Positions 10,795 to 32,222 of a DNA stretch of 48,758 bases are shown here, one piece after another; within the stretch, counting starts at the first letter, position 1, and each line of letters begins with the position of its first letter. The notes beneath the pieces are model-generated. The model was not told the DNA's origin and did not search any database. It saw only the letters and a list, made by a program, of their open reading frames with translations. A program made the translations under genes and the position numbers. This DNA comes from Bacillota bacterium (lineage in GTDB: Bacteria > Bacillota > Sulfobacillia > RBS10-35 > JAJYVN01), in the NCBI GenBank assembly GCA_021791995.1, contig JAJYVN010000001.1, forward strand, positions 1 through 48,758, given 5' to 3'.

Positions 10795-10891
10795 CGTCGG
10801 CCACAGGGTTGTCCAGCGGCTCAAGGATGGAAACTCCAGCCGCGCCAGTCGCGTGGCAACGCCGGACCGCGCCGCCCCGGGGGGTGGGTGG

Positions 10892-12983: not shown

Positions 12984-12991
12984 AGGTTGCG

Positions 12992-14354: not shown

Positions 14355-14894
14355 TCATTCGCCGATCGGTTTGTACACGAGAAGCACGACGCCACTCCGA
14401 AGCGGCCTCGCCTCGGCGAGGCTCAATCGGGGGGCGCCTTCGAGTTCCTCGAACATATGCCGGCCTTTGCCAACCGCCACCGGCGTCAACAGGACATGGA
14501 TCTCATCGATGAGCCCGTGCGCCATGAGGGTCACATCGAGCGATCCGTTTCCGTACTTCACGAGATTTCGGTCATGTCTAACCTTTAGGTCGGCCACGAA
14601 GGGCGCGACCTCTCCCCCAATGACCGTGGCATTCCAGCCGGCAGAAGGCAGAGTTCGGGAAGCGACATACTTGGGGATGGCGTTCATGCGGTCCACGAAG
14701 GGACGCGGCTGCATCGCCGGATACGCGGCTGAGAGGCCCTCGTAGGTTCGCCGTCCCAACAGAAGCGCGTCGGCGGCAAGCACGCGCTCGGTGACGTAGG
14801 CGACATGCTCGTCATCCAAATATGGGAAAGCCCAGTCCACGGGGTCGATCTGCCCGCCCACACTGACATGCGTGATCTCGATCAACTTGCCCAC
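14355..14894 (-). CDS. dihydrofolate reductase-family (RibD C-terminal domain) protein
   Basis: 179 aa. LLGRRTYEGLSAAYP, NAIPKYVASRTL and NLVKYGNGSL are typical of this family. Confidence 0.8.
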   Translation of the reverse strand: MGKLIEITHVSVGGQIDPVDWAFPYLDDEHVAYVTERVLAADALLLGRRTYEGLSAAYPAMQPRPFVDRMNAIPKYVASRTLPSAGWNATVIGGEVAPFVADLKVRHDRNLVKYGNGSLDVTLMAHGLIDEIHVLLTPVAVGKGRHMFEELEGAPRLSLAEARPLRSGVVLLVYKPIGE

Positions 14895-15079
14895 TTGCGT
14901 CGCTCCTTTACGCGTTCGGTGAAGTGCCTTGTGCTGGGAGCCGGGTGGTGAACAAGAGCAGCGTGTCTTCGATGGTTGCCAGCCACCAAAACAGTACGTT
15001 GGCGAATGCTACTCGTCGAATCCCTCGGCTCGGTGAGATCGCGGAGCGGCGTTCATCGTAACGTGCTCTGTGCCCACGC

Positions 15080-15983
15080 CGCTTCTTCAAACTTGTACAG
15101 GCCGCGTCTGGTGGTAGGCGCGCTACATGGCGCTACCCGAGAGCGTGGTGCTGTCCGGCTTCGCAGCGAGCGTCTCGAGCACCCGCGGCGGGACGCGCAT
15201 GCCGACGGCCGCAAACGCCTCGTGCGCTCGACCGACCAGTGGCGTGCGCATCACGTATCGACCCCGCCTGGAGACGACCTCGCCCACCCCGGGGGGCCGC
15301 AGATCTTCCATCACGGCGTGGTAGTCCTTCTCGCTCAGGACCCCGGCGGTGCCGAGTGCCTGCCGGATCGCCATCTCCAGCACGTAGGCCAGGAAGCACA
15401 CCGCGACGTGCGCCCGGATCCGCCGGTCGACGTAGTGGTAGACCGGCCGCATCTCGAACGGCCCCTTGAGCTCGCGAAAGGCCCGCTCCACCCGGTACAG
15501 CTGGCGGTACGCCTTGGCGATCTCGGGCCCGGTGAGCGCGGTGTTCGCCCGCAGCACGTACTTGCCATCGTAGCGGCGGTGGCGCTCGATCGCCTCGCGG
15601 TTGAGCCGCACCGCCTCGCCGGTCAGGCGCACGTACGGCCGGTAGAGGGAGTTGCGAAGAAGGCTCGAGCCCGAGGGGTTCTTCTTCAACGTCGCCTTGA
15701 GCCGGGCCACGATCTCCCGCCAGCGCTCGCGGTCGTGGATCTCCTCCTCGGGGTTGTGCACGACGACGTAGGCCTCGTCGCCGATCGTGAGCTCCTTCAC
15801 CCGGATACCGAGGTCCTCGACCTCCTGCCAGCTGTCGCCCCGGTAGGACAGCGCAGCCTCGGGCTTGGCCGTCAGGCGCGACCCGACGACGTACTCGATC
15901 TTCGGCCACGTCGTGACGCATGACGCAGGTGGCAGACAAGGGGCTGGAGAGCAATCGCTCACCCCCGCGCGCAAGCGCTGCAC
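15080..15983 (-). mobile_element. truncated IS1634/IS4-like element (C-terminal half of the transposase only)
   Basis: ORF 15123..15983 aligns with the C-terminal part of the intact transposase at 20025..21689 (DGKYVLRAN...YRQLYRVERAFRELK...RPVYHYVDRRIRAHVAVCFLAYVL). The N-terminal DDE part is missing. A diverged end sequence (cttcaaacttgta...ggtggtaggcgcg) sits at ~15085-15115. Confidence 0.8.
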
Positions 15984-16052
15984 CCGCCTGTCTGCGACTC
16001 GGCGACATCACGGACACGACTGGGCGAAGGACGGCGGCGCCTCCGCGGGTTC

Positions 16053-16454
16053 TCAGTCGTGCGACCGGACAAGGGTCTTCCTGCGCAAGCGAAGGGCGCT
16101 CCAGGTGGCATCCACGGACACGTTGCTGACCACCCGGAAGGTGGTCTCGTCGGCGATCATCCGTGCGATGACGTCGCGGTTCAGCTCGGAGGCCACACCC
16201 GAGGCCTGCTTGGGGTAGGTGACCCAGAACACAGGGTCGCCCGCCGCCTTGCCGAACAGCGCAGGCACCGCCGCGCGCAGCTCGGCCGCACTCGTCACGA
16301 ACACCTGCACGAAGTTGAGCGGCGCGTCCTGGGAGCCGGGCGCCTCGACCTCGAGGTCGTATCCGGGAGGCGGGTTGACGACGAGGGCGGGCCCGCCCCT
16401 GTAGCCGAGTTTGCGGACGAGATCTGCTGCCACCCCACTACCTCCCACTCCCAC
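16053..16454 (-). CDS. hypothetical protein, DUF3052-like by pattern
   Basis: 133 aa. LVRKLGYRGG...VVNPP, FVQVFVTSAAEL, VFWVTYPKQASG and ATWSALRL resemble the DUF3052 family. Assigned from recollection, not searched. Confidence 0.45.
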   Translation of the reverse strand: MGVGGSGVAADLVRKLGYRGGPALVVNPPPGYDLEVEAPGSQDAPLNFVQVFVTSAAELRAAVPALFGKAAGDPVFWVTYPKQASGVASELNRDVIARMIADETTFRVVSNVSVDATWSALRLRRKTLVRSHD

Positions 16455-16648
16455 GCGGTAGTCGTCTCTTGCCGTGCGGCGTCTGTCACACAGCGCGGGC
16501 CATCGGGCCTAGCCGTCCCGCGCCCGGTCCGGCACGTTCCACCGACAGCGGTATACGTCCACAGCACCGGGTATCCCTTCATTGCGTCCAAATGCCGTTC
16601 TTCGGGGCGTCACGCACCGACGCTCCTCTTTTGCAGTCTCGACAAACA

Positions 16649-16768
16649 AGAGGAGGGGGTTCTGCGACACGGGCGCCCGCCTGGACACAGGGGCCGACGA
16701 CTTCCTGGAAAAGCCGTTCCATTGTCGTGGCGCTCACCCTGCCACGATCTTAACCGTCGTCTAACCGG
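16649..16768 (+). pseudogene. deletion remnant of a paralogous RR-HK operon
   Basis: aggagggggt matches the RR ribosome-binding site at 12291. ctggacacaggggccgacgacttcctggaaaagccgttccat matches RR 12579-12620 (LDxGAxDFLEKPFH). It is fused directly to gctcaccctgccacgatcttaaccgtcgtctaacc, which matches the HK 3' end at 14041-14075. Confidence 0.75.
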
Positions 16769-16840
16769 CCGGTCGGTATTGTCGTGTCACAACCGGGCTG
16801 GTCGAGGTTACACCCAGGGAGAGAGACGAGGTGTGGTCGC

Positions 16841-18385
16841 GTGAGCGTTGGCGGCGGGCACAACGGGGAACGCTTTGTGGCCTTGGTGTATGCCGAGACA
16901 AGACGGCTCTTCAGAACCCGCGGTGTGGTTGCGAGCCTTGTCATTGCCGTCGCTTTGATCCTACTGCCCGGGGTGCTCCTCGCCGGCCTTCTGGCGCTCC
17001 AGGGTCCCAGCGGACCCCTGAGTGGGCAAGTCGTGTTGGGACCCAACGGGGAAGCGGTCAAGGATGAGTTTATGTTCGTGCATCGCCCGCTGGTGGGCGA
17101 TGGAACGATTACTGCACGGGTTGCCTCCGTGAGCGGATTGATCACTTACCCGCCCCCTTTGAACGACCGCATCGTGGCCGGGGTCGTGCCATGGGCGAAG
17201 GCGGGGATCATCATGAAGAGTGGCCTGACTCCGGGAGCGCGCTACGTTGCGATGATGGTCACCGGAAGCCACGGCGTTCGACTGCAGTACAACTTCACGG
17301 GCGACGTTGCCGGTCTCGCCCCCAACGCATCCCGCGAATCGCCGATATGGTTGCGGCTTACACGGTCCGGCGACACATTCACCGGCTACGATTCAACAAC
17401 GGGCAGGCGGTGGACGCGCGTGGCCACCGTTCATGTCGGGCCGATGCCAGATACGGTTCAGGTGGGGCTGTTTGTCACGTCCCCGCACGATCTCACAGTG
17501 TCGGAGGGGGCAAGTCGCTTCACGAGCGCTACAGCCGTGTTCGGCCGCATTGAGCTCAGCGGCAAGATCAACGGCCGCTGGGCCTCGGTAGACCTTGGTG
17601 CGCCCAAGGGCCTACCGAGACACTTGCAGGGGCGCGCCGTAGAGGTCCGCGGTCGGTTCTCCGTCACTGGCTCGGGGGACATTGCGCCGCTCGGGCTCGG
17701 ATCTGGGTGGCCCATCGAGCGCAGTCTCATGGGGACGTTTGCCGGAATCATCGCGATCATCGCGGCGGCCACGGCATATGCCGCGGACGAAACCCACAAG
17801 AGGGAGGGTTCTGGGGGCCTGTCGGGGCGATTCGCGCGAGTCAAAGCACTCGCGGCGCAGAGCCTCACCATCGCGGCTGCAGGCTTCGTCGTCGGCGGTA
17901 TAGGGGCCATCCTAGCGGTTCCGCTGGGTGCAGCTCTGCTCAGTTCCAGCGGCAACACGGTGCTACCGGTCCCTCCGGCGACCGAACTACGCGTAATCCT
18001 CGGCACCGCTCTGTTGATGGCTTGGGCGAGTGCGTTCGCTCTGGGGCTGGCTTGGTGGACGCGCCGTCGCGTCGCCGCCCAGGTGGCTGGCCTCTCGTTG
18101 GTCGTCGTCCCGTACGTCCTGGCACGGATCGGCGCCGTGCCGCTCGGCGTATCCCGGTGGTTGCTGCGTGTCACGCCGGCCGCCGGGTTTGCGATTCAGC
18201 AGAGTCTGCCGGCCTACACTCAGGCGTTGGGCCCTAAGACGCCGCAACTTGGTTACTACCCATTGACGCCGTGGACCGGTCTTGCGGTAGCTGGTGCGTA
18301 CGGGGTGGCAGTGCTGGGCCTGGCCGCCGCGCTCGCATACCGCGCCGACCCCCACGCTGATGGCAGTCCTGTAGCAGCACGGTAG
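16841..18385 (+). CDS. ABC-2-type permease-like membrane protein with a large extracytoplasmic jelly-roll (ConA/LamG-like) domain; start uncertain
   Basis: N-terminal ETRRLFRTRGVVASLVIAVALILL is typical of ABC-2 permeases. A ~270-aa loop follows (GDGTITARV, WAKAGIIMKSG, VRLQYNF, IWLRLTRSGDTFTGY) and then 5 TM helices. No ATPase gene is adjacent. Alternative starts at 16784 and 16877. Confidence 0.55.
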   Translation: MSVGGGHNGERFVALVYAETRRLFRTRGVVASLVIAVALILLPGVLLAGLLALQGPSGPLSGQVVLGPNGEAVKDEFMFVHRPLVGDGTITARVASVSGLITYPPPLNDRIVAGVVPWAKAGIIMKSGLTPGARYVAMMVTGSHGVRLQYNFTGDVAGLAPNASRESPIWLRLTRSGDTFTGYDSTTGRRWTRVATVHVGPMPDTVQVGLFVTSPHDLTVSEGASRFTSATAVFGRIELSGKINGRWASVDLGAPKGLPRHLQGRAVEVRGRFSVTGSGDIAPLGLGSGWPIERSLMGTFAGIIAIIAAATAYAADETHKREGSGGLSGRFARVKALAAQSLTIAAAGFVVGGIGAILAVPLGAALLSSSGNTVLPVPPATELRVILGTALLMAWASAFALGLAWWTRRRVAAQVAGLSLVVVPYVLARIGAVPLGVSRWLLRVTPAAGFAIQQSLPAYTQALGPKTPQLGYYPLTPWTGLAVAGAYGVAVLGLAAALAYRADPHADGSPVAAR

Positions 18386-18970
18386 GCTCATGGGTTTTCC
18401 ATCACAAACGAGGGAGCCCCGATGAGTCGACGCCTCTGGCTCTGGACGACTAGGCCTCCTTGCTCTGGCACTGGCATCGCTTGGACACTGGTCCATGGAA
18501 GTCCTTGAGGGCCGGCCCGGCGCGGCCAGGCGCGACACTGCCAGGCGCGAGACTGCGGGGGCGGACGCCGGACCGCCACGGAACGATGCGGTCGCGTTGG
18601 CTGTCGTCGGTAATGTGGTTCACGTTCACTCAGTCAAGGGCACTGCTCACGCACTCGAAGTTCGGCGCCACGGTGGTCTTAACTCAGCTTCCGCATGTGG
18701 GAGTAAGTCGATCGGCGTGAATTGCGGCGGGCGGAGACATGTCGTCGACGTCGGTGCCGAGTGCCTCAAGAGTGCAGGCGCTGTGGAGCAGGACGGCGGT
18801 CCGTTGAGACCATTCCTGACCATGGTGACGGACCTTGGGAAGCAGATTGGTGCGAGGGCCTCAATAATGACGCGGTCGGATGGGGCGGGGAGGACCGCTT
18901 GTCCGGGAGAACGAGCAGCTTCTGGTCCTTCAGGGCGGTGCGCACGCTATCGCACGTCGACGGCGCCGCA

Positions 18971-19609
18971 GTGCTGGTCATCCGTTGGCCTGCACAAGCT
19001 GATCCTCGGTATACCTTACCGTCAGAACAGGGGGCAAATTGTCTGTACAGTTCAGTCCTTGAACTCCTCATATTCAGCATTCCGTCCGTTGTATATGTTC
19101 GGAGGTTACAGAATCGGGGCAAGAGCCGCCGCGAGGCTTGGGCCGCTGTTGGGTGGCAACCGGGCCCCCTAACGGGATACTGGATCGCTATCGGTGTCCT
19201 AATAGCCCTCACGCCGATCATCTATCTCGCCACGCGGTCTATACCTGTCGCGATCCTATATAGTCCTCATGTCGTCATCAGCGAAAGCGCGACCGGGTCC
19301 GGTATCGTTGCGAGCAGCTTGCTGGCACTGGCCGAAGAAGTATTGTTCCGCGGGCTCATAGCCGGCAGGTTGCTTGACCGATACGGATTTATGGTCGGCA
19401 ACGGTCTTCAGGCTCTAATATTTCTGGCTCCACATCTCCTGCTGCTACTCGTCAGCATTACATTCTGGCCTCTCGCGCTAGTGCAGTTCATAGCTGGATG
19501 GCTGCTGGGGGCGGTACGTTATAAGTCAGGTAGTATCTTGCCAGGTTGGTTGGCGCACGCTGGTGCGAACGTATTGGCTCCGCTCCTGTTTGCGCTGCTT
19601 GTGAAATAA
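18971..19609 (+). CDS. CPBP-family intramembrane glutamic endopeptidase (CAAX protease-like); start uncertain
   Basis: Motifs EEVLFRG, FLAPHL and HAGANV. There is no ATG in the membrane part, so the GTG at 18971 was chosen. This stretch is visibly more A/T-rich than its neighbours. Confidence 0.75.
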   Translation: MLVIRWPAQADPRYTLPSEQGANCLYSSVLELLIFSIPSVVYVRRLQNRGKSRREAWAAVGWQPGPLTGYWIAIGVLIALTPIIYLATRSIPVAILYSPHVVISESATGSGIVASSLLALAEEVLFRGLIAGRLLDRYGFMVGNGLQALIFLAPHLLLLLVSITFWPLALVQFIAGWLLGAVRYKSGSILPGWLAHAGANVLAPLLFALLVK

Positions 19610-19832
19610 CTCAGCCTCCCCGCGTCATCTTTACTTGGCTCTCGGCCCAATTCCGCCACAGTCCCGGGGGGTGCCTACGTATCCCGCCCCTTCGTCGGTG
19701 GGCTGGCCTTCGCCGTCGGGCGGCTTGGTTGGTACAGGCGCTCGGATCGGCGGTGGCGGCGCAGCTTGCGGTGATGTCCGATCGCGAGATGACCGCGTAC
19801 TACCGACGCGTTGCTTCCGGACGACCACGTGG

Positions 19833-21787
19833 TGTTCAAGGCTCGGGAGCCCGACCCGAGTTCGACAGTTGCGACCCCTCTGGCGCTCACGGCCGGAGGG
19901 GTCGATCGCGTAGTGGCGCGGTTTCTGGGGTCTCACGTAGGCACGAACGCCCGAAAACTGTAGGCACACGCCTATGGCACGTACGGTTGACTGTTAAACG
20001 GAAGTTCACGATAATGTAGGCAAGATGTATCTGCGATCGACCACCCGTACCAACAAGACCGGCGAGACGGTCCGCTACCTCCAACTCGCCGAGAGTGTCC
20101 GTGACCCCAAGAAGGGATACCCCGTTGCGAAGGTCGTCTACAACTTCGGCCGCGCCGACGAAGTCGATGAAGCCTCCCTCCGCCGGCTCGCCAAGAGCAT
20201 CACCCGCTTCCTGTCTCCCGAAGACGCTCTCGAGACCCAGGCCGAGTTGGACCCCGCCTCAGGCGACCTGCGCTTCGTTGAGAGCTTCCCGTATGGCCCG
20301 GCCTACCCCCTCGCCTCGCTGTGGCATGAGTTCGGCCTCGACGCCGTGATCATGGACCTGGTCAAGGACCGCAAGTTCAGCGCCCCGGTCGAGCGCGCGA
20401 TTCTGGCCATGGTCGCCGGTCGAGCGCTTGAGCCGGGGAGCAAGCGCGCCACCGCCGAGTGGCTCGATGGTCACGTCGCCATCCCCGACGTGGACCAGAT
20501 CCCCCTGCACCAGCTCTACCGCGCCATGGACGTGCTGATCGAGGCGGAGGAGGACCTGCAGCGGCGCGTGTTCGAGCGCGTCGCCCACCTGTTGAACCTC
20601 GAGGTGGACCTGCTCTTCTTCGACACGACGTCCACCTACTTCGAGACCGAGGGGGAGGACGAGTTCCGCCGCCGCGGCCACTCCAAGGACTCGCGCCCCG
20701 ACCTGGCCCAGGTGGTGATCGGGCTCGCCGTCACCCGCGAGGGCATCCCGATCCGGGTCTGGACGTGGCCGGGCAACACGACCGACGTGACGCGGATCAA
20801 GACCGTGCGCGAGGACCTTCGGGGCTGGCGGCTGGGGCGGGTGGTCCAGGTGGTCGACCGGGGCTTCGTGTCCGAGGCGAACCTGCGTGAGATGACACGC
20901 GGCGGCGACCACTACATCGCCGGGGTGAAGATGCGCCAGGGCAGTGCCGGCGTGGAGGAGGCGCTGTCCCGACCGGGCCGCTTTCGGAGCGTGCGCGACA
21001 ACATAGAGGTCAAGGAGATCTGGGTGGGGAGCGGCGAGAAGAGGCAGCGGTTCGTCCTGGTGCGCAATCCCAAGGATGCCGAGCGCGACCGCAAGACCCG
21101 CGAGTCGATCGTGAAGCACGTGACCGAGGCGATGGCGGCGATCCGCGAACTCGAGGTCGGGCATGTGAAGGCGGCGTGCGAGCTTGCCGCCCATGAGGTC
21201 TACGGGCGGTACGTGAGGCTGAACGAGAAGACGGGGCGGCTGAGCCTGAACCGGGAGCGGATCCGCGAGGAGGAGCGGCTGGACGGCAAGTACCTGATCG
21301 GCACGTCGGACGACACGCTGACGGCGGAGGACGTGGTGCTGGGCTACCGGCAGCTGCTTGAGGTGGAGGACGCCTTTAGGACGCTCAAGACGACGCTCGA
21401 GCTGAGGCCGCTCTACCACCGCCTGGAGAACCGGATCCGCGCGCACGTGGTGCTGTGCTGGCTGGCGCTTATGTTGGTGCGGATCGCCGAGTACCGGACG
21501 GGCGAGACGTGGACGGAGATCCGCCACGAGCTTGGGCGGATGCACCTCGGGCGGTTCGAAGGTGACGCTGGGACGGTGTGGCGGCGCACCGAGACGCGGC
21601 CGGCGCAGGCCAGCCTGTTCACGGCTATGAAGGTGGCGGAGCCGCCCGTGGTATTGCGGATCGAGCGCGCGCGCGGGAGGGCGATGTAGTAACACGACAC
21701 CCCTAGGCCAAAGAGCCCGCAAAGCCTTGCGGGGCCTGGCTTTGCGGGCTCTTCATGTGCCTACCAACTGTCGAAGTCGGGCCCGAG
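19833..21787 (+). mobile_element. complete IS1634-family insertion sequence
   Basis: Imperfect terminal inverted repeats: ctcgggagcccgac..ttcgacagttg (19842-19871) and gtaggcaca (19960-19968) pair with tgtgcctac-caactgtcgaagtcgggcccgag (21756-21787). ACGTGG occurs at 19827-19832 and 21788-21793 and is a candidate 6-bp target duplication. Confidence 0.75.
20025..21689 (+). CDS. IS1634-family (IS4-like DDE) transposase
   Basis: 554 aa. FFDTTSTYFE, VVDRGFVSEANL and DGKYLIGTS...YRQLLEVEDAFRTLK...RPLYHRLENRIRAHV. A 16-bp perfect hairpin (21711-21753) follows the stop. Confidence 0.9.
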   Translation: MYLRSTTRTNKTGETVRYLQLAESVRDPKKGYPVAKVVYNFGRADEVDEASLRRLAKSITRFLSPEDALETQAELDPASGDLRFVESFPYGPAYPLASLWHEFGLDAVIMDLVKDRKFSAPVERAILAMVAGRALEPGSKRATAEWLDGHVAIPDVDQIPLHQLYRAMDVLIEAEEDLQRRVFERVAHLLNLEVDLLFFDTTSTYFETEGEDEFRRRGHSKDSRPDLAQVVIGLAVTREGIPIRVWTWPGNTTDVTRIKTVREDLRGWRLGRVVQVVDRGFVSEANLREMTRGGDHYIAGVKMRQGSAGVEEALSRPGRFRSVRDNIEVKEIWVGSGEKRQRFVLVRNPKDAERDRKTRESIVKHVTEAMAAIRELEVGHVKAACELAAHEVYGRYVRLNEKTGRLSLNRERIREEERLDGKYLIGTSDDTLTAEDVVLGYRQLLEVEDAFRTLKTTLELRPLYHRLENRIRAHVVLCWLALMLVRIAEYRTGETWTEIRHELGRMHLGRFEGDAGTVWRRTETRPAQASLFTAMKVAEPPVVLRIERARGRAM

Positions 21788-22208
21788 ACGTGGAGCTCGG
21801 GGTGCACTTCCGCTGCGACGGTACGAGGGATCAGGCTGACCTTCGACTGATTAACCGGCCCCGCCGATGTGCGCGCCCACCGGGGTCCGCCTCGCCGCTA
21901 CGCGCCCTTGCGACGCGTTCGCCGGCGGCGCGGTCCCTTCGTGTTCCCATCAGGAGGTGACACGGTTGGGCGCATGGACGGACAGCGCCTTGAGGCTCGC
22001 TTCCCGTGTGACCCTCACGGCCTCCGGCCCGGTCACGTTGCTAGGTGTCAACGGCTGGCCGGAACGCGCAATCGCTAAGGACGCCGAAGAGGGGCGCGTC
22101 GCGGAGGCGCCCGTTCTGGTGCCTCCGATGGCAGCCGGGGCCGTTCGACCGGGAAGACCCACACCGTGCAGCCGGGGTACCTCAGGGTCCTTCAGGTTAT
22201 GGAAGTAG

Positions 22209-23048
22209 GTGAATAAGGTGCTGGTCAGGGTCTTGCTCTCTATCGCGGCCGGCGCGAGCGCCGGCTTGAGCCTCTACCGGGCCGTCGAGGTATCCGACTT
22301 GGTCCTCCGCCAGCGCGGCCAGGGGATGGCGTCCGGTGCCCGGCTTCGGACGCTGGGTGACGCAGGTTGGGCGCTGATCTTCCGACTGTGGGGACCGAAC
22401 AGTGAGGAGGTATGCCGGTCGGTCCACATGGACCCCGTGCTCCTGCTCAGGATTCAGCTCCTGGTCTCCCTCATGCCGGCCGGACTCCTCGGCTTTCTCA
22501 TGCGCCTTCCGTGGCCCATCGTGGTCGGTGTGTCGGCCGCCGGGTTCGTGCTCTTGCCGCGCGCCATCCTCAACAGTGAGGTGTCCGACAGGCGGACGCG
22601 CATCCTGGCCGAGCTTCCGGATACGCTGGGGCCGATGCTTGAGGTGGTGCAGCTGACGGGGGACCCCATCCAGGGCGTTCGGGCGGGGTTGCCCTACACG
22701 GATCCGAAGGGCGCGCTCCGTGAGGAGTTCATGCGCGTCCTGAGTGAGACGGGAGCTCACCATGACTTCCCGCTAGCGATTGAGCGCTGGGCGGAGCGCG
22801 TCGGACATCCGCTCGCGAAGGACGTCGCCCGGATCCTGGTGGTCGGCTTTCAGCGCCGGCTTCACGCCCAGGCGCTGGAGGACGTACGGGACAAGCTCGC
22901 CGCCATCCGCGTCATGATCGTCGAGGCCGCGACCGCGGCGATACCGAACTACATGGCCGCCGCCGGCGGCGCGCTCTTCATGGGCTTTGCCGCGCTGCTG
23001 CTGATACCCGGATACGTCATGCTGCACTCCGGATTCGGGCTCTTGTAG
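22209..23048 (+). CDS. tadC: TadC-like (T2SS-F family) platform protein
   Basis: 279 aa with the same architecture as tadB. ELPDTLGPMLEVVQLTG is a T2SSF-type helical domain and the C-terminus has a TM pair. Confidence 0.7.
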   Translation: MNKVLVRVLLSIAAGASAGLSLYRAVEVSDLVLRQRGQGMASGARLRTLGDAGWALIFRLWGPNSEEVCRSVHMDPVLLLRIQLLVSLMPAGLLGFLMRLPWPIVVGVSAAGFVLLPRAILNSEVSDRRTRILAELPDTLGPMLEVVQLTGDPIQGVRAGLPYTDPKGALREEFMRVLSETGAHHDFPLAIERWAERVGHPLAKDVARILVVGFQRRLHAQALEDVRDKLAAIRVMIVEAATAAIPNYMAAAGGALFMGFAALLLIPGYVMLHSGFGLL

Positions 23049-24055: not shown

Positions 24056-24310
24056 GTGAACAAGGTTCGCGCGGCCTTGTCGGCACGATTCGGACGCGGC
24101 AGGCTGCGGCGGCTGCGGTCGGACCGTGGCGACTGGATGACCTACATCAACTGGGCGATCGGCATCGGCGCGGGGATTCTCGTCGGCTACGGGGTCCTGA
24201 ACTACCTCGTCCCCGCGGTCAACGGCGGCATGCAGGGGCAGACGACCTGCTTCTTCGGTTCCAACAGCGGCTCGGTCAACACCTCGTGCCAGCAGGCGCC
24301 TACGTCTTAG
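24056..24310 (+). CDS. Flp-like (Tad) prepilin, non-canonical leader
   Basis: 84 aa with GTG behind GGTAGGGGGAGAG. The basic leader ends ...LRRLRSDRG, followed by DWMTYINWAIGIGAGILVGYGVL. The size, the position before tadV and tadE, and a leader shared with two other locus proteins support the call. Confidence 0.55.
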   Translation: MNKVRAALSARFGRGRLRRLRSDRGDWMTYINWAIGIGAGILVGYGVLNYLVPAVNGGMQGQTTCFFGSNSGSVNTSCQQAPTS

Positions 24311-24375: not shown

Positions 24376-25014
24376 ATGTCGACCTTGGGCCGCCTGCTTA
24401 CGTACCTCTCCGGAAGTGCGGCCGTTCTGGTGCTGGGTGGCGTGCTTGCGCGGGTGCAGCCCCGGCTTTGGCCATGGATGCTCCCTTACCTCGCCTTCGA
24501 GGTGTCCACGGCGGTATTTGCGTTCATCTCCCCGAAGGCCCGGGTACCGGCGTGGGGCTGGACGGAGACCCTGGTGCCGAGCGTCGCGACGTGGCTCTAC
24601 GTGGTGGGCTTTGCGGTACTTCATGGAAGCCCTGTATCGAACCCGTGGGTGCGCGGTGCGTCAGAAGGTCTATCACTCGTCGGGTACGGGCTCGGCACCT
24701 GGGCTCTCTTGAACCTCAGGACGGCGTTCTCGGTCCTCCCCGAGGTACGCACGCTCGTGGCCACGGGACCGTACCGGTTCGTGAGGCACCCGATGTACCT
24801 GGCGTACTTCCTGATCACGGCAGGTTCGGTGGTCGCCGAGCCGAGCCCGTCGCTGCTAGCAGCGGCAGCCGTATGGGCGGGCCTCATGTACGCGCGTGCC
24901 AGGGTGGAGGAGCGCAAGCTCGCGGCGAATCTGCCTGGGTACCTTGGCTACGCGGCTCGAACGGGTGCGCTTGTTCCGGGCCTTGGTCGCCTCATGCCGG
25001 AGGGGAATCCATGA
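24376..25014 (+). CDS. ICMT/PEMT-family membrane methyltransferase
   Basis: Multi-TM protein with TGPYRFVRHPMYLAYF and the EER block of the isoprenylcysteine carboxyl methyltransferase family. Its stop overlaps the tadV start (ATGA). Confidence 0.75.
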   Translation: MSTLGRLLTYLSGSAAVLVLGGVLARVQPRLWPWMLPYLAFEVSTAVFAFISPKARVPAWGWTETLVPSVATWLYVVGFAVLHGSPVSNPWVRGASEGLSLVGYGLGTWALLNLRTAFSVLPEVRTLVATGPYRFVRHPMYLAYFLITAGSVVAEPSPSLLAAAAVWAGLMYARARVEERKLAANLPGYLGYAARTGALVPGLGRLMPEGNP

Positions 25015-25457
25015 CGGCGGCCGACGCGACGATCCTGACGGTCGCGCTTGCCGCCGCATCCGTGTGGGACATCCGGGTGCGACGCATCCCCAACCCCCTG
25101 GTCATCGCGGCCGCGGTGCTCCTGGTGGCAGCGGATCTGGAGGGTCTCTCGTTCATGACGACCGCGATCCGGGCGGGAAGTGCCGCCGTGCTACTCGGCC
25201 TATGGCTTCTGGTGCCTACGGGCATGGGCGCCGGGGATGCGAAGCTCCTGGCCGTGTGCGCGCTCGGCGGTGGCCCGTTTCTGGCCCTGGTTCTGTTCTT
25301 TGGGTCCGCCGTGACCATGGCCTTGTTCGCGCTCGCGCGGTGGGTAGCGACGTGGGGCCGCGTGAGACTCGGCGGGGCGCTTCCGATGGCACCGTTCGCG
25401 GGAGTCGTTTGGGTGGTCGTGCTGACCGGGCTGGTTGGCGTGCCGCACCGGTTCTGA
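25011..25457 (+). CDS. tadV: A24-family prepilin peptidase (TadV/CpaA type, no methyltransferase domain)
   Basis: 148 aa. The catalytic Asp contexts are SVWDIRVRRIPN and GMGAGDAKLL. Confidence 0.85.
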   Translation: MTAADATILTVALAAASVWDIRVRRIPNPLVIAAAVLLVAADLEGLSFMTTAIRAGSAAVLLGLWLLVPTGMGAGDAKLLAVCALGGGPFLALVLFFGSAVTMALFALARWVATWGRVRLGGALPMAPFAGVVWVVVLTGLVGVPHRF

Positions 25458-25490: not shown

Positions 25491-26015
25491 TTGGAGCGGC
25501 TCAGGAGGCTGCGTGACGACGCGGGGTTCTTTGGCCCCTTCGGGCCCTATGTGGTGGGCCTGGTGCTGGTAGGTGCGAGTCTGGCGCTTGTCTCGGCGTT
25601 CACCGCGGTGAACGGGCTGTCTCACGACCAGGGCGCGTACGCGGGTGTGCTGTCGGGGGCGGCCAACAGCGCCGCGAGGGACGTGAACGTCCAGGCGCTC
25701 GCCGGTGGGCAGGTCGAGATCGACACGACCAAGGCTCCGACGGCGTTCACGGACTATCTCGTATCCGAGGGCGGGCTGACCAAAACGTCGCCGGGGATCT
25801 TCCAGGCCAGCGCGACGTCGTCGGGTCAGACGGCGGGCCAGACCCCTACGGTCAGCGGCCTTTCGGTGTCACCGTCGCCCTCGACGACTGGCGTACTGGC
25901 GCAAGGTTGGGCGGCCGACGTCTTGCCCCTCCCGGTGCTCGGCACCATGACCGTGCGCCTTCCCGAGAGTGTTAGCGTTGAGCCGCAGGCGAGGCTTGCG
26001 GACACCGTCCCGTAG
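25491..26015 (+). CDS. TadE-like pseudopilin
   Basis: TTG start behind AGGGAGGGAG. The leader MERLRRLRDDAG is followed by a hydrophobic helix, matching the pilin leader. Confidence 0.6.
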   Translation: MERLRRLRDDAGFFGPFGPYVVGLVLVGASLALVSAFTAVNGLSHDQGAYAGVLSGAANSAARDVNVQALAGGQVEIDTTKAPTAFTDYLVSEGGLTKTSPGIFQASATSSGQTAGQTPTVSGLSVSPSPSTTGVLAQGWAADVLPLPVLGTMTVRLPESVSVEPQARLADTVP

Positions 26016-26550: not shown

Positions 26551-27120
26551 CTAACGCCTGGACCGGAACGTTGCTAGTTGCCTAGTCACGCCAGTTACCT
26601 GGCGACGATATCGAATCAAATCCACACTAGCGCCAAAGTGCAAGACCATTGCTGCCTCAGACAACTGGCGTCTAGCAGCCCAGAGCAGTGCTGGCCGCGG
26701 CAACTGTAGACAACCGCCTAGCCAACTGGCTTCTGCTTCCTGTTCCTCGTCGTAGTCCCGGAGAGGGTAAGGGAACTCGCTTATCTGGAGAACCATCGAG
26801 GGCTCGTGCTTGCACAGCAAGTGGGCGAGCTCGTGCATGAGGTCGCTCTGTTGTCTCGTCTTTGCGTGCTCTGTATTCCTAATAATTACGGGCTGATCTC
26901 CAACGGAAATTGTCAAGGCCGACCAACTGGACGGATCGGTGAATAGCAATTGCCAAAGTGTGACCGCGTCCATACCGGGAATGTCATGTGGGCCGACGAG
27001 GAAAACACCTAGATGGGAAGCCAATTGTTCGGCTGCTAGGGGATCCTGGGGGTTTAGGTCAAGAGCACGACGCAAGTCCACCGCCCACGCCTCGGATTGG
27101 GTCTTGAATCCTCTTTGCAT
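26551..27120 (-). CDS. ImmA/IrrE-family zinc metallopeptidase
   Basis: HEXXH in DLMHELAHLLCKH. It lies 2 nt downstream of an XRE repressor gene, the immR-immA arrangement. Confidence 0.85.
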   Translation of the reverse strand: MQRGFKTQSEAWAVDLRRALDLNPQDPLAAEQLASHLGVFLVGPHDIPGMDAVTLWQLLFTDPSSWSALTISVGDQPVIIRNTEHAKTRQQSDLMHELAHLLCKHEPSMVLQISEFPYPLRDYDEEQEAEASWLGGCLQLPRPALLWAARRQLSEAAMVLHFGASVDLIRYRRQVTGVTRQLATFRSRR

Positions 27121-27122
27121 GT

Positions 27123-27515
27123 CTATCGCGGACTTGGCTGGGGCCAGTCTCCCCGCCCGGCAGCCTCAAACGCTAAACGGATCATAGTTACCAAGGCCTC
27201 CACTGTTTTGGGATCCAAAGTACGTTGAGCCCGAAGGTGCGCTGTAATTATATCAACATCCGTTGCCGCTGCTTTTTGCGGTTCTGAGCTAACGCTGAGA
27301 TTGTGTGCGAGGTGGTCTGGGGAGACGCCGAGCCACCGGCACAGGCGCAGGAAGGTGTTCAGATCGGGTACATGACCCCTTTCGATTCGTGACAGGGTCG
27401 AGGCGCTGATGCCTCCGATCTCCTTCGCCGCCGCTTGGAGCCCGCGATTACCACGCTTCGTTCGGATCAGCGCAGCTAGTTCAGCAAGGTTCACATCAGA
27501 CACAACTGTGCCCAC
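27123..27515 (-). CDS. XRE-family HTH repressor (ImmR-like); start uncertain (27503 or 27515)
   Basis: LQAAAKEIGGISASTLSRIERGHVPDLNTFLRLCRWLG is a Cro/C1-type HTH. Confidence 0.85.
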   Translation of the reverse strand: MGTVVSDVNLAELAALIRTKRGNRGLQAAAKEIGGISASTLSRIERGHVPDLNTFLRLCRWLGVSPDHLAHNLSVSSEPQKAAATDVDIITAHLRAQRTLDPKTVEALVTMIRLAFEAAGRGDWPQPSPR

Positions 27516-27549
27516 CCTTCCCGTCGCATGAATAAGACGTATTGCGCTC

Positions 27550-27587
27550 TTGCAAGGGGATGGGGTCCTTGCGTATAATGTACGCAA
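27550..27587 (+). promoter_or_regulatory. near-consensus sigma-70-type promoter plus palindromic operator for the Ubl operon
   Basis: TTGCAA (27550-55), 18 nt, then TATAAT (27574-79). The perfect palindrome ttgcgta-taatg-tacgcaa (27569-87) overlaps the -10 box. Extra TTGCG/TGCAA half-sites occur at 27542, 27601 and 27609. Confidence 0.6.
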
Positions 27588-27656
27588 CACGTGTCACGGA
27601 TGCAACACTTGCGATTCGGAACGTGGGGTGACCAGTGTGAGAGGGGGCTGAAAGAA

Positions 27657-27884
27657 GTGGCCGACGGCGCCAAGTACGAGGTGGACATCGAGGGCCGTTT
27701 CTACCCGTGGGATTCAGACGACATCACGACCAAGGACATCATCCGGTTGGCGGGCTTTGCGGCTGGCACCCAAATCATCGAGGTCGATGGCGACAACAAC
27801 CAGCGGACCTTGGGGCCCGAGGAGGTTGTCGAGTTGAAGCCTGGTCATGGCTTCGCCAAGCGACACCGGTTTCGCCGGGGTTAG
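27657..27884 (+). CDS. ubiquitin-like (multiubiquitin/beta-grasp type) protein ending in a free Gly (BilA-like)
   Basis: 75 aa from the GTG behind GAGGGGG (the ORF track starts at 27591). The pattern YEVDIEGRFYPWDSDDITTKDIIRLAG...VVELKPGHGF fits a beta-grasp fold. The C-terminus is ...RHRFRRG followed by the stop. Confidence 0.7.
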   Translation: MADGAKYEVDIEGRFYPWDSDDITTKDIIRLAGFAAGTQIIEVDGDNNQRTLGPEEVVELKPGHGFAKRHRFRRG

Positions 27885-27888
27885 GGCG

Positions 27889-28266
27889 ATGACGCGCATT
27901 GAGCAGGAGTTGGTTCTCCTGCGCTCCAAGTTCCCGGATGCAGCCTTGCAAGGTCAGTGGGTACTGCTGCCGAGCTATCCTGTACCGAACCCCGGGTGGG
28001 GCGCCGACTCCGTCAAGGTCGCCTTCCCAATCCCCGCCGCCTACCCAGCCCAGAAGCCGTATGCCTTCTACGTCTCACCCCCTCTTAGGGTGGGCGCCTC
28101 GATCCCCGGAAATGCCACTGAGGCGTCTGATCCGGTCTTCGATGGGGAATGGACCAAGTTTTCATGGGACTGTCAGGACTGGTCGCCGGCGGCGGAAGTC
28201 GCGGGAGGCTCCAACTTGCTGCACTGGGCGCTAAGCTTCCACGAGCGCCTAAAGGATTACTCATGA
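27889..28266 (+). CDS. prokaryotic E2-like (UBC-fold) protein (BilB-like)
   Basis: 125 aa, starting 4 nt after the Ubl stop. VKVAFPIPAAYPAQKPYAFYV resembles the E2 core. There is a single Cys (FSWDCQDW). Supported by context between Ubl and JAB/E1. Confidence 0.65.
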   Translation: MTRIEQELVLLRSKFPDAALQGQWVLLPSYPVPNPGWGADSVKVAFPIPAAYPAQKPYAFYVSPPLRVGASIPGNATEASDPVFDGEWTKFSWDCQDWSPAAEVAGGSNLLHWALSFHERLKDYS

Positions 28267-28796
28267 CCATCGAGGTCCGACTGACGTCGGAGGAGTGGAT
28301 TCTACTCCGTCAGCATCTGTTTCAGAATTCCAAGGAGCATGCCGCGTTTGCCTTTTGCAAACTGGCGCGGGGAGACGACGGAGTGGCCCTGGTATCGGAG
28401 GACCTATATCTTGCCGTCCGGTCGGACTTCGAATTGCAGTTGGAATACCATATTACGCTTAGCGATGAGACCCTTGCGCGGCTGATTAAGAAAGCGTGGG
28501 ATCATGACCACTGTATTGTGGAGTTTCACTCCCATCCAAAGTCCCCCGGTGGGGTGAGTTTCTCGCCGAGTGACCTTGATGGGCTAGCAGACGTCGTTCC
28601 GTACATCGGTTGGCGGTTACGGGGACGGCCATACGCAGCGGTCGTTGTCGGACTCAAGGAGATAGACGCCTTGGCCTGGGTCGATGACTTCACGGTTCCG
28701 CAGCGACTGGATGTGGTGCGAGTGGGCAATGACAAGCTGCTACCAAGTCAGATTACTATATCTGAACTGGAGGGCGACTATGGGGAGATTCAGTAG
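28263..28796 (+). CDS. JAB/MPN+ (JAMM) metallo-isopeptidase (BilC-like)
   Basis: Glu in NSKEHAAFAF, and HSHPKSPGGVSFSPSD matches HxH-x9-S-xx-D. ATGA overlap with the E2 gene. Confidence 0.9.
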   Translation: MTIEVRLTSEEWILLRQHLFQNSKEHAAFAFCKLARGDDGVALVSEDLYLAVRSDFELQLEYHITLSDETLARLIKKAWDHDHCIVEFHSHPKSPGGVSFSPSDLDGLADVVPYIGWRLRGRPYAAVVVGLKEIDALAWVDDFTVPQRLDVVRVGNDKLLPSQITISELEGDYGEIQ

Positions 28797-29637
28797 GCAG
28801 ATCCTTCTGTTCGGCGACGAGGGGCAACAGGTCCTTAGCAACATTCGGGTCGCGATCATCGGGCTAGGCGGGCTCGGGAGCCATGTTTCGCAGCAACTCG
28901 CATATCTAGGCATTCGCAAGTTCGGCCTTGTGGACGGCGACATGGTGGAGGAGACCAATCTTAACCGCTTGATCGGCGCTACCGCCGACGACGTCCCAGC
29001 AAGTCGGCCGAAGGTGGACGTCGCCGAACGTATGATCAAAGCGGTCGATCCGGAAGTCCAGGTAGAGCGGGTTGGTAAGTCGTTCATCTCGCTGGAGGGC
29101 CGCGCCCTGCTTAGCGAGGCCGATTTTGTCATCGGCTGTGTCGACAATGACGGCGCGCGCCTTGCGCTCACGGCTGTATGTGCGGCGCTTCACAAGCCCT
29201 ATATGGACGTGGCTACTGACATCGACCCGGATGACACGCCGATCAACTATGGAGGTCGTATCATCTTCGCTAAGGGCGCCTCCGGCTGCTGTCACTGTCT
29301 GGGCGCCCTCGACGATCGTGAAATAGAGCGTTGGATGGGGAGTGAGGACCAGCTCGCGGCAGACGACAGAATCTACGGGAGTGGTGCAGCGGGGCCTAGT
29401 CCCTCGGTTGTTTGTCTCAATGGCGTTCTGGCCTCGGCGGCCTGTCTGGAGTTCATGGTCGAGGTCACAGGCCTACGGGAAGCAAACCGTTGGCTTGAAT
29501 ACGACGGTCCGTCCGGGAAAATGCGAGTTGACTCCACCGTTCCCACAGGCTGGTGCCCGTACTGTGAGTCCTTTAAGTACGGCAGCACTGAGTATGTCGA
29601 CTGGATGCTATCCCGCCTGCCGCAAACTCATCGTTAG
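28780..29637 (+). CDS. ThiF/MoeB/E1-like adenylyltransferase (BilD-like)
   Basis: IIGLGGLGSHV (nucleotide loop), ETNLNRL and GCVDNDGARL. Cys pairs CCHC and CPYC. 17-nt overlap with the JAB gene. Confidence 0.9.
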   Translation: MGRFSRQILLFGDEGQQVLSNIRVAIIGLGGLGSHVSQQLAYLGIRKFGLVDGDMVEETNLNRLIGATADDVPASRPKVDVAERMIKAVDPEVQVERVGKSFISLEGRALLSEADFVIGCVDNDGARLALTAVCAALHKPYMDVATDIDPDDTPINYGGRIIFAKGASGCCHCLGALDDREIERWMGSEDQLAADDRIYGSGAAGPSPSVVCLNGVLASAACLEFMVEVTGLREANRWLEYDGPSGKMRVDSTVPTGWCPYCESFKYGSTEYVDWMLSRLPQTHR

Positions 29638-29853
29638 CGGATGGTCCAAGCCGGGTTCGGCTTACTGTGCACTTGTCTTGGATGCAGTTGCTGCCGTACC
29701 CGCATTAGGCCGGCGTAGTAACTCCGGAGTGCCCCTGGCCTGGCCCGCGATTGCAGGTCGCCGACGTCGATCACCGGATGCGCCAATTTTACCGTGCGAC
29801 TGGTAGGAAGTGGGTCGCCCGTGCCGAACAGTGTCGGCACGGGGAGGTGCTCC

Positions 29854-30480
29854 GTGCACGGAGGCATCGTTCGCCAGATCGACGAGCTCGGCCGCATCGT
29901 GATACCAGCGGAGGTCCGTAGGGTCTTCGGCATCGAGGACGACACGCGGGTCGAGATGTTCCTGGACGGCGAGAAGATCGTCCTCAAGGTCCATCGGCCG
30001 GGGTGCGTGTTCTGCGGTGGCGTGGAGGACACGCGCGAGTACCGGGGTCGGCACATGTGCCGATCCTGCGCTTTTCATGTGTTCACGGAGTTTGAGGGGG
30101 CGCCGTCAGAGGTGGGTTGGCCCGCGACGGCCGGCGGTGACGCTGGGGCACCGGGCGTATGGTCCCCTCTCCCGGAGCAGGCAGCGAGGGAATGGGTCGC
30201 GAAGGAACTCCGCCTGCGGGGCTGGCAAGTTGACGAATCCGGGCGCGCTGGGCGTTCCGTGGACTTGGTGGCCTGGACCGCAACTCGGACTTGGTACCTT
30301 CAGGTCAGGGCCTTCCAGGGCGGCCAGCCCGAGTGGCCCACCGGCCACCAACTCGGATGGCTTAAGGGCGCTGCCAGACGGAAGGATGCGACTGCTGTGG
30401 TGGCGTTTGTGCGTGCGTTGGCGCCGACTTGGGCGGTGGAGTTCTGGTCAGCGCACGCCTTTCGAAAGCTGGAGACTTAG
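29854..30480 (+). CDS. AbrB/SpoVT-type DNA-binding domain fused to a Cys4 ribbon and a YraN/PD-(D/E)xK-like fold
   Basis: GIVRQIDELGRIVIPAEVRRVFGIEDDTRVEMFLDGEKIVLK closely matches the AbrB N-terminal domain. CVFCGG...CRSC follows. The C-terminal AREWVAKELRLRGWQV...SVDLVAW...WYLQVRAF resembles the YraN-type nuclease fold, but with Q/R where E/K are expected. Confidence 0.8.
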   Translation: MHGGIVRQIDELGRIVIPAEVRRVFGIEDDTRVEMFLDGEKIVLKVHRPGCVFCGGVEDTREYRGRHMCRSCAFHVFTEFEGAPSEVGWPATAGGDAGAPGVWSPLPEQAAREWVAKELRLRGWQVDESGRAGRSVDLVAWTATRTWYLQVRAFQGGQPEWPTGHQLGWLKGAARRKDATAVVAFVRALAPTWAVEFWSAHAFRKLET

Positions 30481-30573
30481 CTTCGCCCCGGGAATCTCCC
30501 TTGGGACCGGCCCAGACGGCGGAGCGGCGATCCGTATGTACGGAGTATGCTTGCTACAGAGGGAGATGAGCCC

Positions 30574-32199
30574 ATGCCGCTGTTGAACTTCAAAGGCAAG
30601 ACGTTCGTGCAGAGTCATCACTTGACGGTACCCTACCACACGCTGGTGCCAGTACCGGAGAGGAGTCTGACGGAACAGGTTCGCCTCGATGACAACCTAA
30701 TCATTCATGGTGATAACCTTGCGGCTCTAAAGGCGCTCTTGCCCGTGTACGCAGGCAAGGTGAAGTGCATCTATATTGACCCTCCGTACAATACTGGCAC
30801 TGAAAACTGGATCTATAATGATAACGTAAATTCTCCAATGATCCGAGATTGGCTTGGCAGGGTCGTGGACAGAGAAGATCTGACGCGCCATGATAAGTGG
30901 CTGTGCATGATGACCCCGCGTCTTCGACTATTGCGCGAATTGCTCCGAGACGATGGCGCCATCTTCGTCAGTTGCGATGACAACGAGCAGCATCACTTGA
31001 GGATGCTGATGGACGTAGTCTTCGGAGAAACGAATTTTGTCGCCAACTTGATATGGCAGAAGAAGTATGCATCGGCAAACGACCATAAGTCCATTGCGCC
31101 GATGCACGACTTCATCGTGGTGTATCAGAAGTCGGACCTGTTCCATCGCAACCTGCTTCCTAGAACCGAGGACAAGGATCGGCAGTACCGCTTTGAGGAC
31201 GAGCGCGGGGTATTCCGGCCCGACAACTACACATGCAACAAGACAGCAGACGAACGGCCTAACTTGTATTACCCTATTGTCAATCCGAACACCGGTGACG
31301 AGATTTGGCCAAAGCGGACGGCAGTGTGGCGTTACACGAGAGCTCGGCATGAGCAGAATGTTGCGAGTGGTCTGGTCTACTGGGGGAAGGACGGGCGCGG
31401 CAGTGTCCCAGCCTTTAAGCGGTACAAGGCGGGCTTGCGTGGCGGTGGCGGCATTGTCCCAAACACCTGGTGGACATTTGACGTTGCCGGACACACAGAT
31501 GAAGCCAAGAAGGAGATCCGCGGTATGGGTCTCGAAGCTGATGAACTTGACTTCATTACACCAAAACCGAGCCGCCTCATTCAGCGTATTCTCCAGATCG
31601 CAACCGACAAGGACTCTATAGTTCTTGACGCGTTCGCCGGGTCTGGAACAACGGCGCATGCCGTCTTGGCCGCCAACAGACAAGACGGAGGCAGTCGCCG
31701 ATTCATCCTGATCGAGATGGAGGACTACGCTGATTCCATCACGGCACAGCGCGTGCGCCGTGTTATAAAGGGTCTTCCCGGGGCGAAGGATCGGGCGATG
31801 AGCGAAGGGTTGGGGGGGAGCTTCTCCTACTTTGAGGTGGGTCCGGCGATTGAGCCAGAGGGCCTGCTAACGGGTGAAGCCCTCCCCCCCTTCAGAGAAC
31901 TGGCGCGCTATGTCTTTTACACAGCGACGGGTGAGGAGTTCCGGCCCGAGGTATTAGACGAAGCCCGCCGGTTCATTGGCTCGAGCGGTGAGTACGACGT
32001 GTACCTTCTATACGAGCCAGACATTGAGAAACTCAAGTCGCTGGCACTCAACCTCGAGTTCGCGGAGCGCCTCGGCAAGCCGGCCGATGGGAAGAGGCGG
32101 CTTGTGTTTGCGCCCGCCCGTTTCCTCACTGACCGGTACATGGAGCAGTATCGGATCGAGTACGCTCAACTGCCCCACGAGATGTACAAGACCCGTTGA
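30574..32199 (+). CDS. mod: Type III restriction-modification methyltransferase (Mod; beta-class N6A/N4C)
   Basis: DPPYNT (motif IV) precedes DAFAGSGTTAHAV (motif I). It is followed 23 nt later by a Res helicase-nuclease gene. Confidence 0.9.
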   Translation: MPLLNFKGKTFVQSHHLTVPYHTLVPVPERSLTEQVRLDDNLIIHGDNLAALKALLPVYAGKVKCIYIDPPYNTGTENWIYNDNVNSPMIRDWLGRVVDREDLTRHDKWLCMMTPRLRLLRELLRDDGAIFVSCDDNEQHHLRMLMDVVFGETNFVANLIWQKKYASANDHKSIAPMHDFIVVYQKSDLFHRNLLPRTEDKDRQYRFEDERGVFRPDNYTCNKTADERPNLYYPIVNPNTGDEIWPKRTAVWRYTRARHEQNVASGLVYWGKDGRGSVPAFKRYKAGLRGGGGIVPNTWWTFDVAGHTDEAKKEIRGMGLEADELDFITPKPSRLIQRILQIATDKDSIVLDAFAGSGTTAHAVLAANRQDGGSRRFILIEMEDYADSITAQRVRRVIKGLPGAKDRAMSEGLGGSFSYFEVGPAIEPEGLLTGEALPPFRELARYVFYTATGEEFRPEVLDEARRFIGSSGEYDVYLLYEPDIEKLKSLALNLEFAERLGKPADGKRRLVFAPARFLTDRYMEQYRIEYAQLPHEMYKTR

Positions 32200-32222
32200 T
32201 GTGAGGGGGCGCATCCGGGTTG

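Follow-up and report, generated by a model that had tools for sequence, protein, structure and literature searches.

The question raised by this locus is whether an N-terminal motif shared by three of its proteins is the leader of prepilins processed by a single peptidase and, if so, whether the motif itself marks a new kind of Tad pilus. The DNA analyzed is a stretch of 48,758 nt with a G+C content of ~65% (hereafter the window, i.e., the whole stretch). The motif RRLR[SD][DE].G is found in an 84-aa pilin (24056-24310, which reads MNKVRAALSARFGRGRLRRLRSDRG/DWMTYINWAIG), in a 174-aa protein first called TadE-like (25491-26015, MERLRRLRDDAG/FFGPFGPYVVG) and in an adhesin of 1234 or 1231 aa (44458, or 44467, to 48162, ...LLRRLRSEAG/DFGTYIAGVI). 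The preliminary description of this DNA had located the three leaders, with the Gly codons at 24128-24130, 25524-25526 and 44503-44505, and all of these positions were reproduced here. When the window was translated in six frames, only these three matches were observed, against an expectation of 0.015 from amino-acid frequencies or of 0.023 from dinucleotide-Markov simulations (300 runs, with at most one match in each). In all three genes the motif lies 12-25 residues from a start codon with a good Shine-Dalgarno site (GGGGGAGAG before the GTG at 24056 of the pilin, AAGGGG before the adhesin), and a hydrophobic stretch directly follows it. The codons chosen differ among the three leaders (e.g., CGG/AGG/CGA and CTG/TTG), hence it is the protein sequence that has been conserved, and both a DNA repeat and gene conversion were rejected as sources of the likeness. 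The form of a class III signal peptide, i.e., a hydrophilic or basic leader up to a Gly followed by about 20 hydrophobic residues, was observed without exception in the three window proteins, in the 7 pilin relatives and in the 9 minor-pilin relatives. No pilin model of Pfam or NCBIfam was reached by any of the three, nor did scans of their relatives give a pilin family. As to the length of the pilin, an automatic gene call made elsewhere had placed its start at an upstream ATG, giving 117 aa; the 84-aa reading that had been proposed is the right one, for the orthologues are also 84 aa long and begin with MDKVRATL or MNKARATL. The features discussed below are collected in Table 1.

Table 1. 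Positions of the predicted pilus genes and of their parts in the window, with the evidence for each assignment.
Feature	Positions	Strand	Evidence
TadZ/CpaE-like ParA-type ATPase	5363-7276	+	NCBIfam CpaE_hom_Actino 2.4e-7, under cutoff; 37% identity to AAA_31 of L013 and L014
TadA/CpaF-like secretion ATPase	7289-8803	+	Pfam T2SSE 6e-10; TIGR03819 3.8e-16, under cutoff
TadB-like platform protein	8800-9696	+	hhalign against Rhizobium T2SSF-family protein 74%, E 2.8e-5; phmmer 1.9e-6
TadC-like platform protein	22209-23048	+	Pfam T2SSF 0.009, weak hhalign; directly after tadB in L013, L014 and L019
Prepilin leader, 25 aa, MNKVRAALSARFGRGRLRRLRSDRG, to predicted cleavage Gly	24056-24130	+	GTG start, Shine-Dalgarno; orthologues start alike
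Mature Flp-size pilin (predicted), 59 aa, DWMTYINWAIGIGA...	24131-24310	+	Asp+1, Trp+8, Gly+11, without Glu5
ICMT/PEMT-family membrane methyltransferase	24376-25014	+	Pfam PEMT 1.3e-9, ICMT 2.2e-8
TadV-type A24 prepilin peptidase, 148 aa, without methyltransferase domain	25011-25457	+	Pfam Peptidase_A24 2e-13
Minor-pilin leader, 12 aa, MERLRRLRDDAG	25491-25526	+	TTG start after GGGAGGGAG; G(-1) invariant in 9 family members
Mature minor pilin (predicted), FFGPFGPYVVG...	25527-26015	+	G/x-phi-G-P-phi-G invariant
CpaB/RcpC-like protein, directly upstream of adhesin	43601-44461	+	TIGR03177 1.7e-10, Pfam RcpC 1.3e-5, both under cutoff
Adhesin leader, 13 aa, MATLLRRLRSEAG, or 16 aa from GTG 44458	44467-44505	+	ATG 44467 or GTG 44458
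Mature adhesin (predicted)	44506-48162	+	Pfam Big_1 3.4e-26

The genes around the three proteins form what is, judged by profile matches and gene order, a very divergent Tad-type pilus locus. All scores of the machinery lie under the curated cutoffs; the assignments of TadA (~25% identical to CpaF), TadB, CpaB and the peptidase are supported by them, and those of TadZ and TadC come from sub-threshold scores together with gene order. Contigs that carry relatives of these proteins gave five further independent loci. In the compact loci L013, L014 and L019 the order is tadZ-tadA-tadB-tadC-(peptidase)-pilin-...-TadE-like, whereas in the window tadB and tadC are split by ~12.5 kb (9697-22208). This insertion carries an OmpR/histidine-kinase pair (12120-14059), a DUF1349/ABC-2-like membrane protein (16784-18385), a CAAX protease (18722-19609) and a DDE transposase (20025-21689). 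The 533-aa membrane protein at 16784 (ETRRLFRTRG/VVASL...) was considered as a fourth substrate, and was rejected on account of its location inside the insertion and its resemblance to ABC-2/DUF1349 proteins. Between the minor pilin gene and a conserved 378-aa gene there is, in addition, a defence island (26551-37535) with an M78 peptidase and an HTH protein, a ubiquitin-like set (Multi_ubiq, Prok-E2_E, a JAB-like protein and ThiF), a MazE-domain fusion, an N6_N4 methylase with a ResIII helicase, and a DEAD-like helicase. The presence of Mrr and a methylase at the same position in L014 (7185-9375) suggests an insertion hotspot. Since both the 12.5-kb insertion and the defence island split the tad operon, its genes may not be expressed together.

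Directly upstream of tadZ (470-5311) lie the genes of a polytopic membrane protein of 647 aa and of a VirB4-like ATPase. The latter matches the CD1110 family with 228 bits, under the cutoff of 325, and its best plasmid matches are from Firmicutes and Actinobacteria (22-29% identity). No secretin gene was observed among the window ORFs scanned. This result and the monoderm type of the VirB4 context indicate that the host is probably monoderm and that the pilus locus probably lies on a mobile, conjugative element. The location of the VirB4 gene and of the membrane protein gene upstream of tadZ suggests that the Tad-like pilus may belong to a monoderm conjugation module. More speculatively, and rather improbably, it could be a mating pilus or an adhesin of a Gram-positive conjugative element. 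An ArdC-like gene is found near the Tad-like locus in L014.

The peptidase gene sits between the pilin gene and the TadE-like gene. Its product is divergent, and the best NCBIfam match, a weak one, is to archaeal EppA (1e-5); Asp20 (in WDxRxRxIPN) and Asp76 (in GAGDAKL) are invariant, and these two catalytic residues are aligned with those of a Rhizobium prepilin peptidase. The stop codon of the preceding methyltransferase gene overlaps the start codon of the peptidase gene (ATGA). L008 has this gene pair as well (461-1491, 61% identity), and L001, L013 and L014 are devoid of it. TadV-type peptidases are devoid of the N-methyltransferase domain of PilD, so that the methyltransferase might modify the cut N-terminus; a literature search found no paper naming both protein types, i.e., a TadV-type peptidase and an ICMT/PEMT methyltransferase.

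The relatives of these proteins are few. The pilin gave 3 matches among 5.8 billion clusters, and a full HMMER search found the 174-aa family in 8 clusters among 1.84 billion representatives. The scan of GTDB genome contigs with the TadE-like alignment and with the ATPase gave no relative, that of viral contigs no locus and that of metagenomes 2 loci only; the pilin alignment was too variable for a contig scan. The conservation described below is that of small samples, 7 pilins and 9 minor pilins.

The shared leader had been described as non-canonical. In order to place it, the Flp, TadE/F and TadG-related genes of 7 annotated plasmid Tad loci (3 Microbacteriaceae, 3 Streptomyces and 1 Rhizobium) were taken as a comparison set. 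The last 7-8 residues of the window leader, [RK]-L-R-x-[DE]-x-G, were found to be those of an ordinary Tad leader as judged from its counterparts in Microbacterium (AKLRDDRG/ and AKFRDDKG/), Streptomyces (ALRNDRG/ and TLRDDRG/) and Rhizobium (FAREEDG/), as well as in LRDEERG/. The strict motif, which had also been put forward for mining further substrates, misses orthologues with LRRERG/, KLRPERG/, RLRSQRG/, VVSEVG/, RRLRSTAG/ and GLGSTVG/. Hence the strict form is, in the sequences aligned here, strain-specific, and the relatives keep only [RK]-L-x-x-[DEQST]-x-G.

The other alleged peculiarity was the residue at +5. The cleavage site of Flp is G/XXXXEY (PMC4322843), and Glu5 has been called absolutely conserved in bacterial type IV pilins (PMC10710030). 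For cleavage it is the Gly at -1 that is critical, and Glu5 is always dispensable (PMC4471445). It is true that in the window +5 is Tyr or Phe (Y, F and Y in the three proteins, never Glu) and that +1 is Asp in two of them; Glu5 was found in 0/17 sequences when the pilin and minor-pilin relatives were added, +5 in the pilin relatives being Y, A or P. Nearly all the TadE/F proteins of the comparison set carry Glu5 (one Microbacterium TadE has Gln at +5), and so do 6/7 of its Flp proteins. However, an aromatic +5 is not aberrant as such: all of the bona fide TadG-related proteins (6/6) have Phe or Tyr at +5 and are devoid of Glu5 (e.g., VATIYFV, SITPFFV, SLSIYLL and AMSVFAL). In the exceptional Flp case, plasmid pC1c of Curtobacterium sp. 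C1 (L021 926-1138), the Tad locus is otherwise a canonical actinobacterial one and the gene at the Flp position encodes ...EERSEHGGEVIGWILVV; this Flp-like protein (...SEHG(G)/EVIGWILVV) has no Glu5 and an acid at +1 or +2. Flp-like pilins without Glu5 are thus not confined to the lineage of the window.

The 174-aa protein is homologous to the TadG-related proteins and in register with them. When the profile of its family was aligned with that of TadG-related proteins by hhalign, a match of 95% was obtained (E 3.4e-8, 87 columns), with G(-1) and the aromatic residue at +5 in register, so that the family is, by profile comparison, a remote homologue of TadG-related proteins. The TadE model (PF07811) was matched by 0/9 members, which lack the Glu5 of G/XXXXE[FS]; canonical TadE proteins run alongside gave 1.6e-8 to 5e-3. 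The Pfam Tad model (PF13400) gave a best E value of 6.9, with one member of the nine, against 4.4e-6 for a bona fide member. The traits of TadG-related proteins (e.g., WP_005052691.1, from a Microbacterium paraoxydans plasmid), namely a leader of the type ...R-[DN]-[DE]-x-G (or, more narrowly, ...R-[DN]-[DE]-[RK]-G), an aromatic +5 without Glu5 and homology in the N-terminal helix, are all found in the 174-aa family, whose helix also carries the Q-x-AY...AA-x-AAR-x-V motif. What sets the family apart, beyond its failure with the two Pfam models, is the invariant, insert-like G/x-phi-G-P-phi-G: in the 9 members G(-1), G+3 and P+4 do not vary, and no acid lies near the N-terminus. On these sequence traits TadG-related-like is a better name for the family than TadE-like. 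The AF2 model of the family (9 sequences) was poor (pLDDT 46.7).

Directly upstream of the TadE-like gene, a conserved protein of 250-300 aa with the motifs VSTWH and GExHRRRAQRRMFG is encoded in the more distant relatives L010, L011, L013 and L014. The window is devoid of it, and in the closer relatives L008 (2580-3137, - strand) and L009 (792-1349, - strand) an HExxH membrane protein, encoded on the opposite strand, occupies that position instead.

The N-terminus of the adhesin resembles the TadE-like family (hhalign 76%, E 2e-5; tblastn 33% identity, E 1e-4). Its effector part is a run of Big_1/CarboxypepD_reg Ig-like repeats, and no LPXTG motif was found in the protein. Large TadG/CpaL-type proteins contain a pilin module and are predicted to stand at the tip of the Tad pilus (bioRxiv 10.1101/2025.02.12.637803). 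The adhesin is comparable to CpaL/TadG and to PilB and PilC of Streptococcus sanguinis in that a large adhesive protein carries a prepilin-type N-terminal module from which the register-keeping residue is missing, with a predicted placement at the pilus tip (bioRxiv 10.1101/2025.02.12.637803); it differs from them in its Ig-like repeats, which stand in place of a vWA or lectin domain. Taken together, the +5 pattern of TadG-related proteins, the hhalign match of the 174-aa family and the likeness of the adhesin N-terminus indicate that two of the three supposedly non-canonical substrates follow the TadG-related norm, the Phe/Tyr at +5 of these two larger proteins being, by alignment, that of an ordinary TadG-related N-terminus.

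The true oddity, as far as the alignments tell, is the family of the major pilin. Around the predicted site the alignment of the 7 pilins is free of gaps: L(-6), G(-1), W(+8) and G(+11) are invariant, and the leader consensus is R-L-R-x-[DEQ]-[RKN]-G. The mature N-termini are DWMTYINW (in two), DWQTYINW, SWMDYINW, EISTALMW, DGSTPFFW and TSGEPVYW. In none of them (0/7) is the Glu5-Tyr6 pair of the Flp motif present, the window pilin reading G/DWMTYINW, yet each has exactly one acidic residue between +1 and +6, located at +1 in 5 pilins and at +4 in the 2 that have no acid at +1. In L008 the change D1S is paired with T4D, a single case. One helical turn separates +1 from +5, and +4 adjoins +5; the D1S/T4D pair fits the idea of a shifted acid that stands in for Glu5. 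It is conceivable, and we propose it with low confidence, that the acid near the N-terminus and the invariant Trp+8 take over the roles of Glu5 and Tyr6.

In size the pilin is a Flp. The predicted mature protein of 59 aa falls within 40-60 aa and is devoid of a globular C-terminal domain; in the AF2 model (3 sequences, pLDDT 57.3, hence of low confidence) one helix starts at residue 26, which is Asp+1, and is followed by a short beta-hairpin. Cys65 and Cys78, both conserved, map to this C-terminal hairpin in the low-confidence model. No Pfam, NCBIfam or PDB sequence match was obtained with the pilin, and the pilin and minor-pilin profiles gave nothing meaningful against PDB sequences. The Flp models of Pfam and NCBIfam did not match the pilin, and likewise failed with 2 bona fide Flp genes, from Microbacterium and Rhizobium plasmids. 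As in the Flp/Tad major pilins (Flp1 of A. actinomycetemcomitans, PilA of C. crescentus and the Flp proteins of actinobacterial plasmids), a long basic leader runs to [DE]-x-G, the mature protein is short (~45-60 aa), without globular domain and without Pro22 (PMC4322843; PMC10710030), and the gene lies after tadC, beside that of a TadV-type peptidase without methyltransferase domain. Unlike them, the window pilin has no Glu5-Tyr6 and no Pfam Flp_Fap match; it has instead the acid at +1/+4, the invariant Trp+8 and Gly+11 and, in its close clade, a C-terminal hairpin with two Cys. Archaeal type IV pilins, which are cut by PibD, FlaK or EppA, also often lack Glu5, and they share the basic residue at -2 and a peptidase without methyltransferase domain (PMC4471445), but the gene set of the window is bacterial and Tad-like (TadZ, split TadB/TadC, CpaB, a monoderm-type VirB4, and MerR and OmpR regulators).

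The reading that we consider the likely one is that the three proteins have in common a class III (type IV prepilin) signal peptide, processed by the TadV-type peptidase, and that the pilus system they belong to is of the Tad type (type IVc), rare and deeply divergent. That a single prepilin peptidase of a Tad-like locus acts on all three, as was first proposed, is very probably correct. The data show the sequence features, their conservation, the homologies and the peptidase with its catalytic residues; how cleavage and assembly proceed, what part the two larger proteins play and whether the shifted acid has a function is what we infer from them. The three proteins would insert into the membrane with the basic leader remaining in the cytoplasm, and the aspartyl peptidase would then cut after the invariant Gly. 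The TadA ATPase and the TadB/TadC platform proteins would polymerize the 59-aa pilin into a filament, in which the TadG-related-like protein would be a minor or tip pilin, and so probably would the adhesin, by means of its pilin-like N-terminal module.

It is less likely, though it deserves to be weighed, that only the 84-aa pilin is cleaved and that in the TadG-related-like protein and in the adhesin the N-terminus stays on as an uncleaved signal anchor, the motif being a topology or targeting signal of membrane-anchored assembly or adhesion factors. TadG-type processing is not established even in model systems: a review lists TadG as a component of the cytoplasmic-membrane sub-complex (PMC10191384), and Flp1, TadE and TadF are the only TadV substrates that the title of Tomich 2006 names. 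Furthermore, the orthologue search with the adhesin N-terminus gave no match in which the conservation of the site could be followed. In the minor pilins, however, G(-1) is invariant in 9/9 despite the variation in length and sequence of their leaders, and the minor-pilin leader is as near to that of the pilin as the leaders of the pilin orthologues are to one another. In addition, CpaL/TadG has a predicted CpaA site, and TadG is present in pilus fibre preparations (bioRxiv 10.1101/2025.02.12.637803). These points speak against uncleaved anchors.

The view taken in the preliminary description, that of a divergent Tad subtype with its own code RRLR[SD][DE]xG, a co-evolved divergent peptidase and a pilus without any charge interaction of the Glu5 type, appears improbable. 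It would account for the absence of Glu5 from 7/7 pilins and 9/9 minor pilins and for the divergence of the peptidase, with its weak EppA match, and the leaders of pilin and minor pilin do tend to match within a genome (RLRS..G in L008, GE.G in L014). Shared ancestry can nevertheless explain this last pattern, and leader co-evolution within genomes was rejected for that reason and because 6 genomes are too few. Moreover, the strict motif is lost in orthologues and its relaxed form is that of an ordinary Tad leader. [quoted passage not shown] Finally, it is most improbable that the RR-bearing N-termini have nothing to do with prepilin processing and serve as signals of the Tat or Sec route, or resemble one another by chance, since their superficially Tat-like twin arginine before a hydrophobic stretch is lost in orthologues (HKLRPERG, YRLTSDKG and VVSEVG), which led us to reject a Tat signal, since they show no FLK-type Tat consensus and no AxA site and have acidic residues abutting the hydrophobic region, since an A24 peptidase is adjacent and the Tad gene set present, and since three copies of the motif stand against 0.02 expected.

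What is new, under the class III signal peptide reading, is the major pilin of a rare Tad-like lineage, which has the size of a Flp but not the Flp motif; the leader itself is of an already known type. Pilin finders that require Glu5 or Pfam matches would miss this lineage, and the strict motif would miss even close relatives. The structure of the Caulobacter Tad pilus left the role of Glu5 in Tad pili unexplained, and a family with an acid at +1/+4, together with the D1S/T4D change of L008, provides a natural test of whether the N-terminal charge, and its position, matter. As a speculation that we regard as rather unlikely, this Tad-like lineage could have given up Glu5 for an acid at +1/+4, maybe with the translationally coupled ICMT/PEMT methyltransferase modifying the fresh N-terminus, so that the N-terminal charge of a type IV filament would be dealt with in a different manner.

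Two further proteins of the window, of 378 and 1018 aa (38676-42872), carry Sec-type signal peptides and no Pfam domain. Their homologues lie beside Tad-like genes in distant relatives (L013 9652-10554; L014 9666-13586) with 28-37% identity: that of the 378-aa protein comes next in the compact loci L013 and L014, and L014 also has that of the 1018-aa protein. The two proteins might be partners that are secreted to act with the pilus system, or its cargo.
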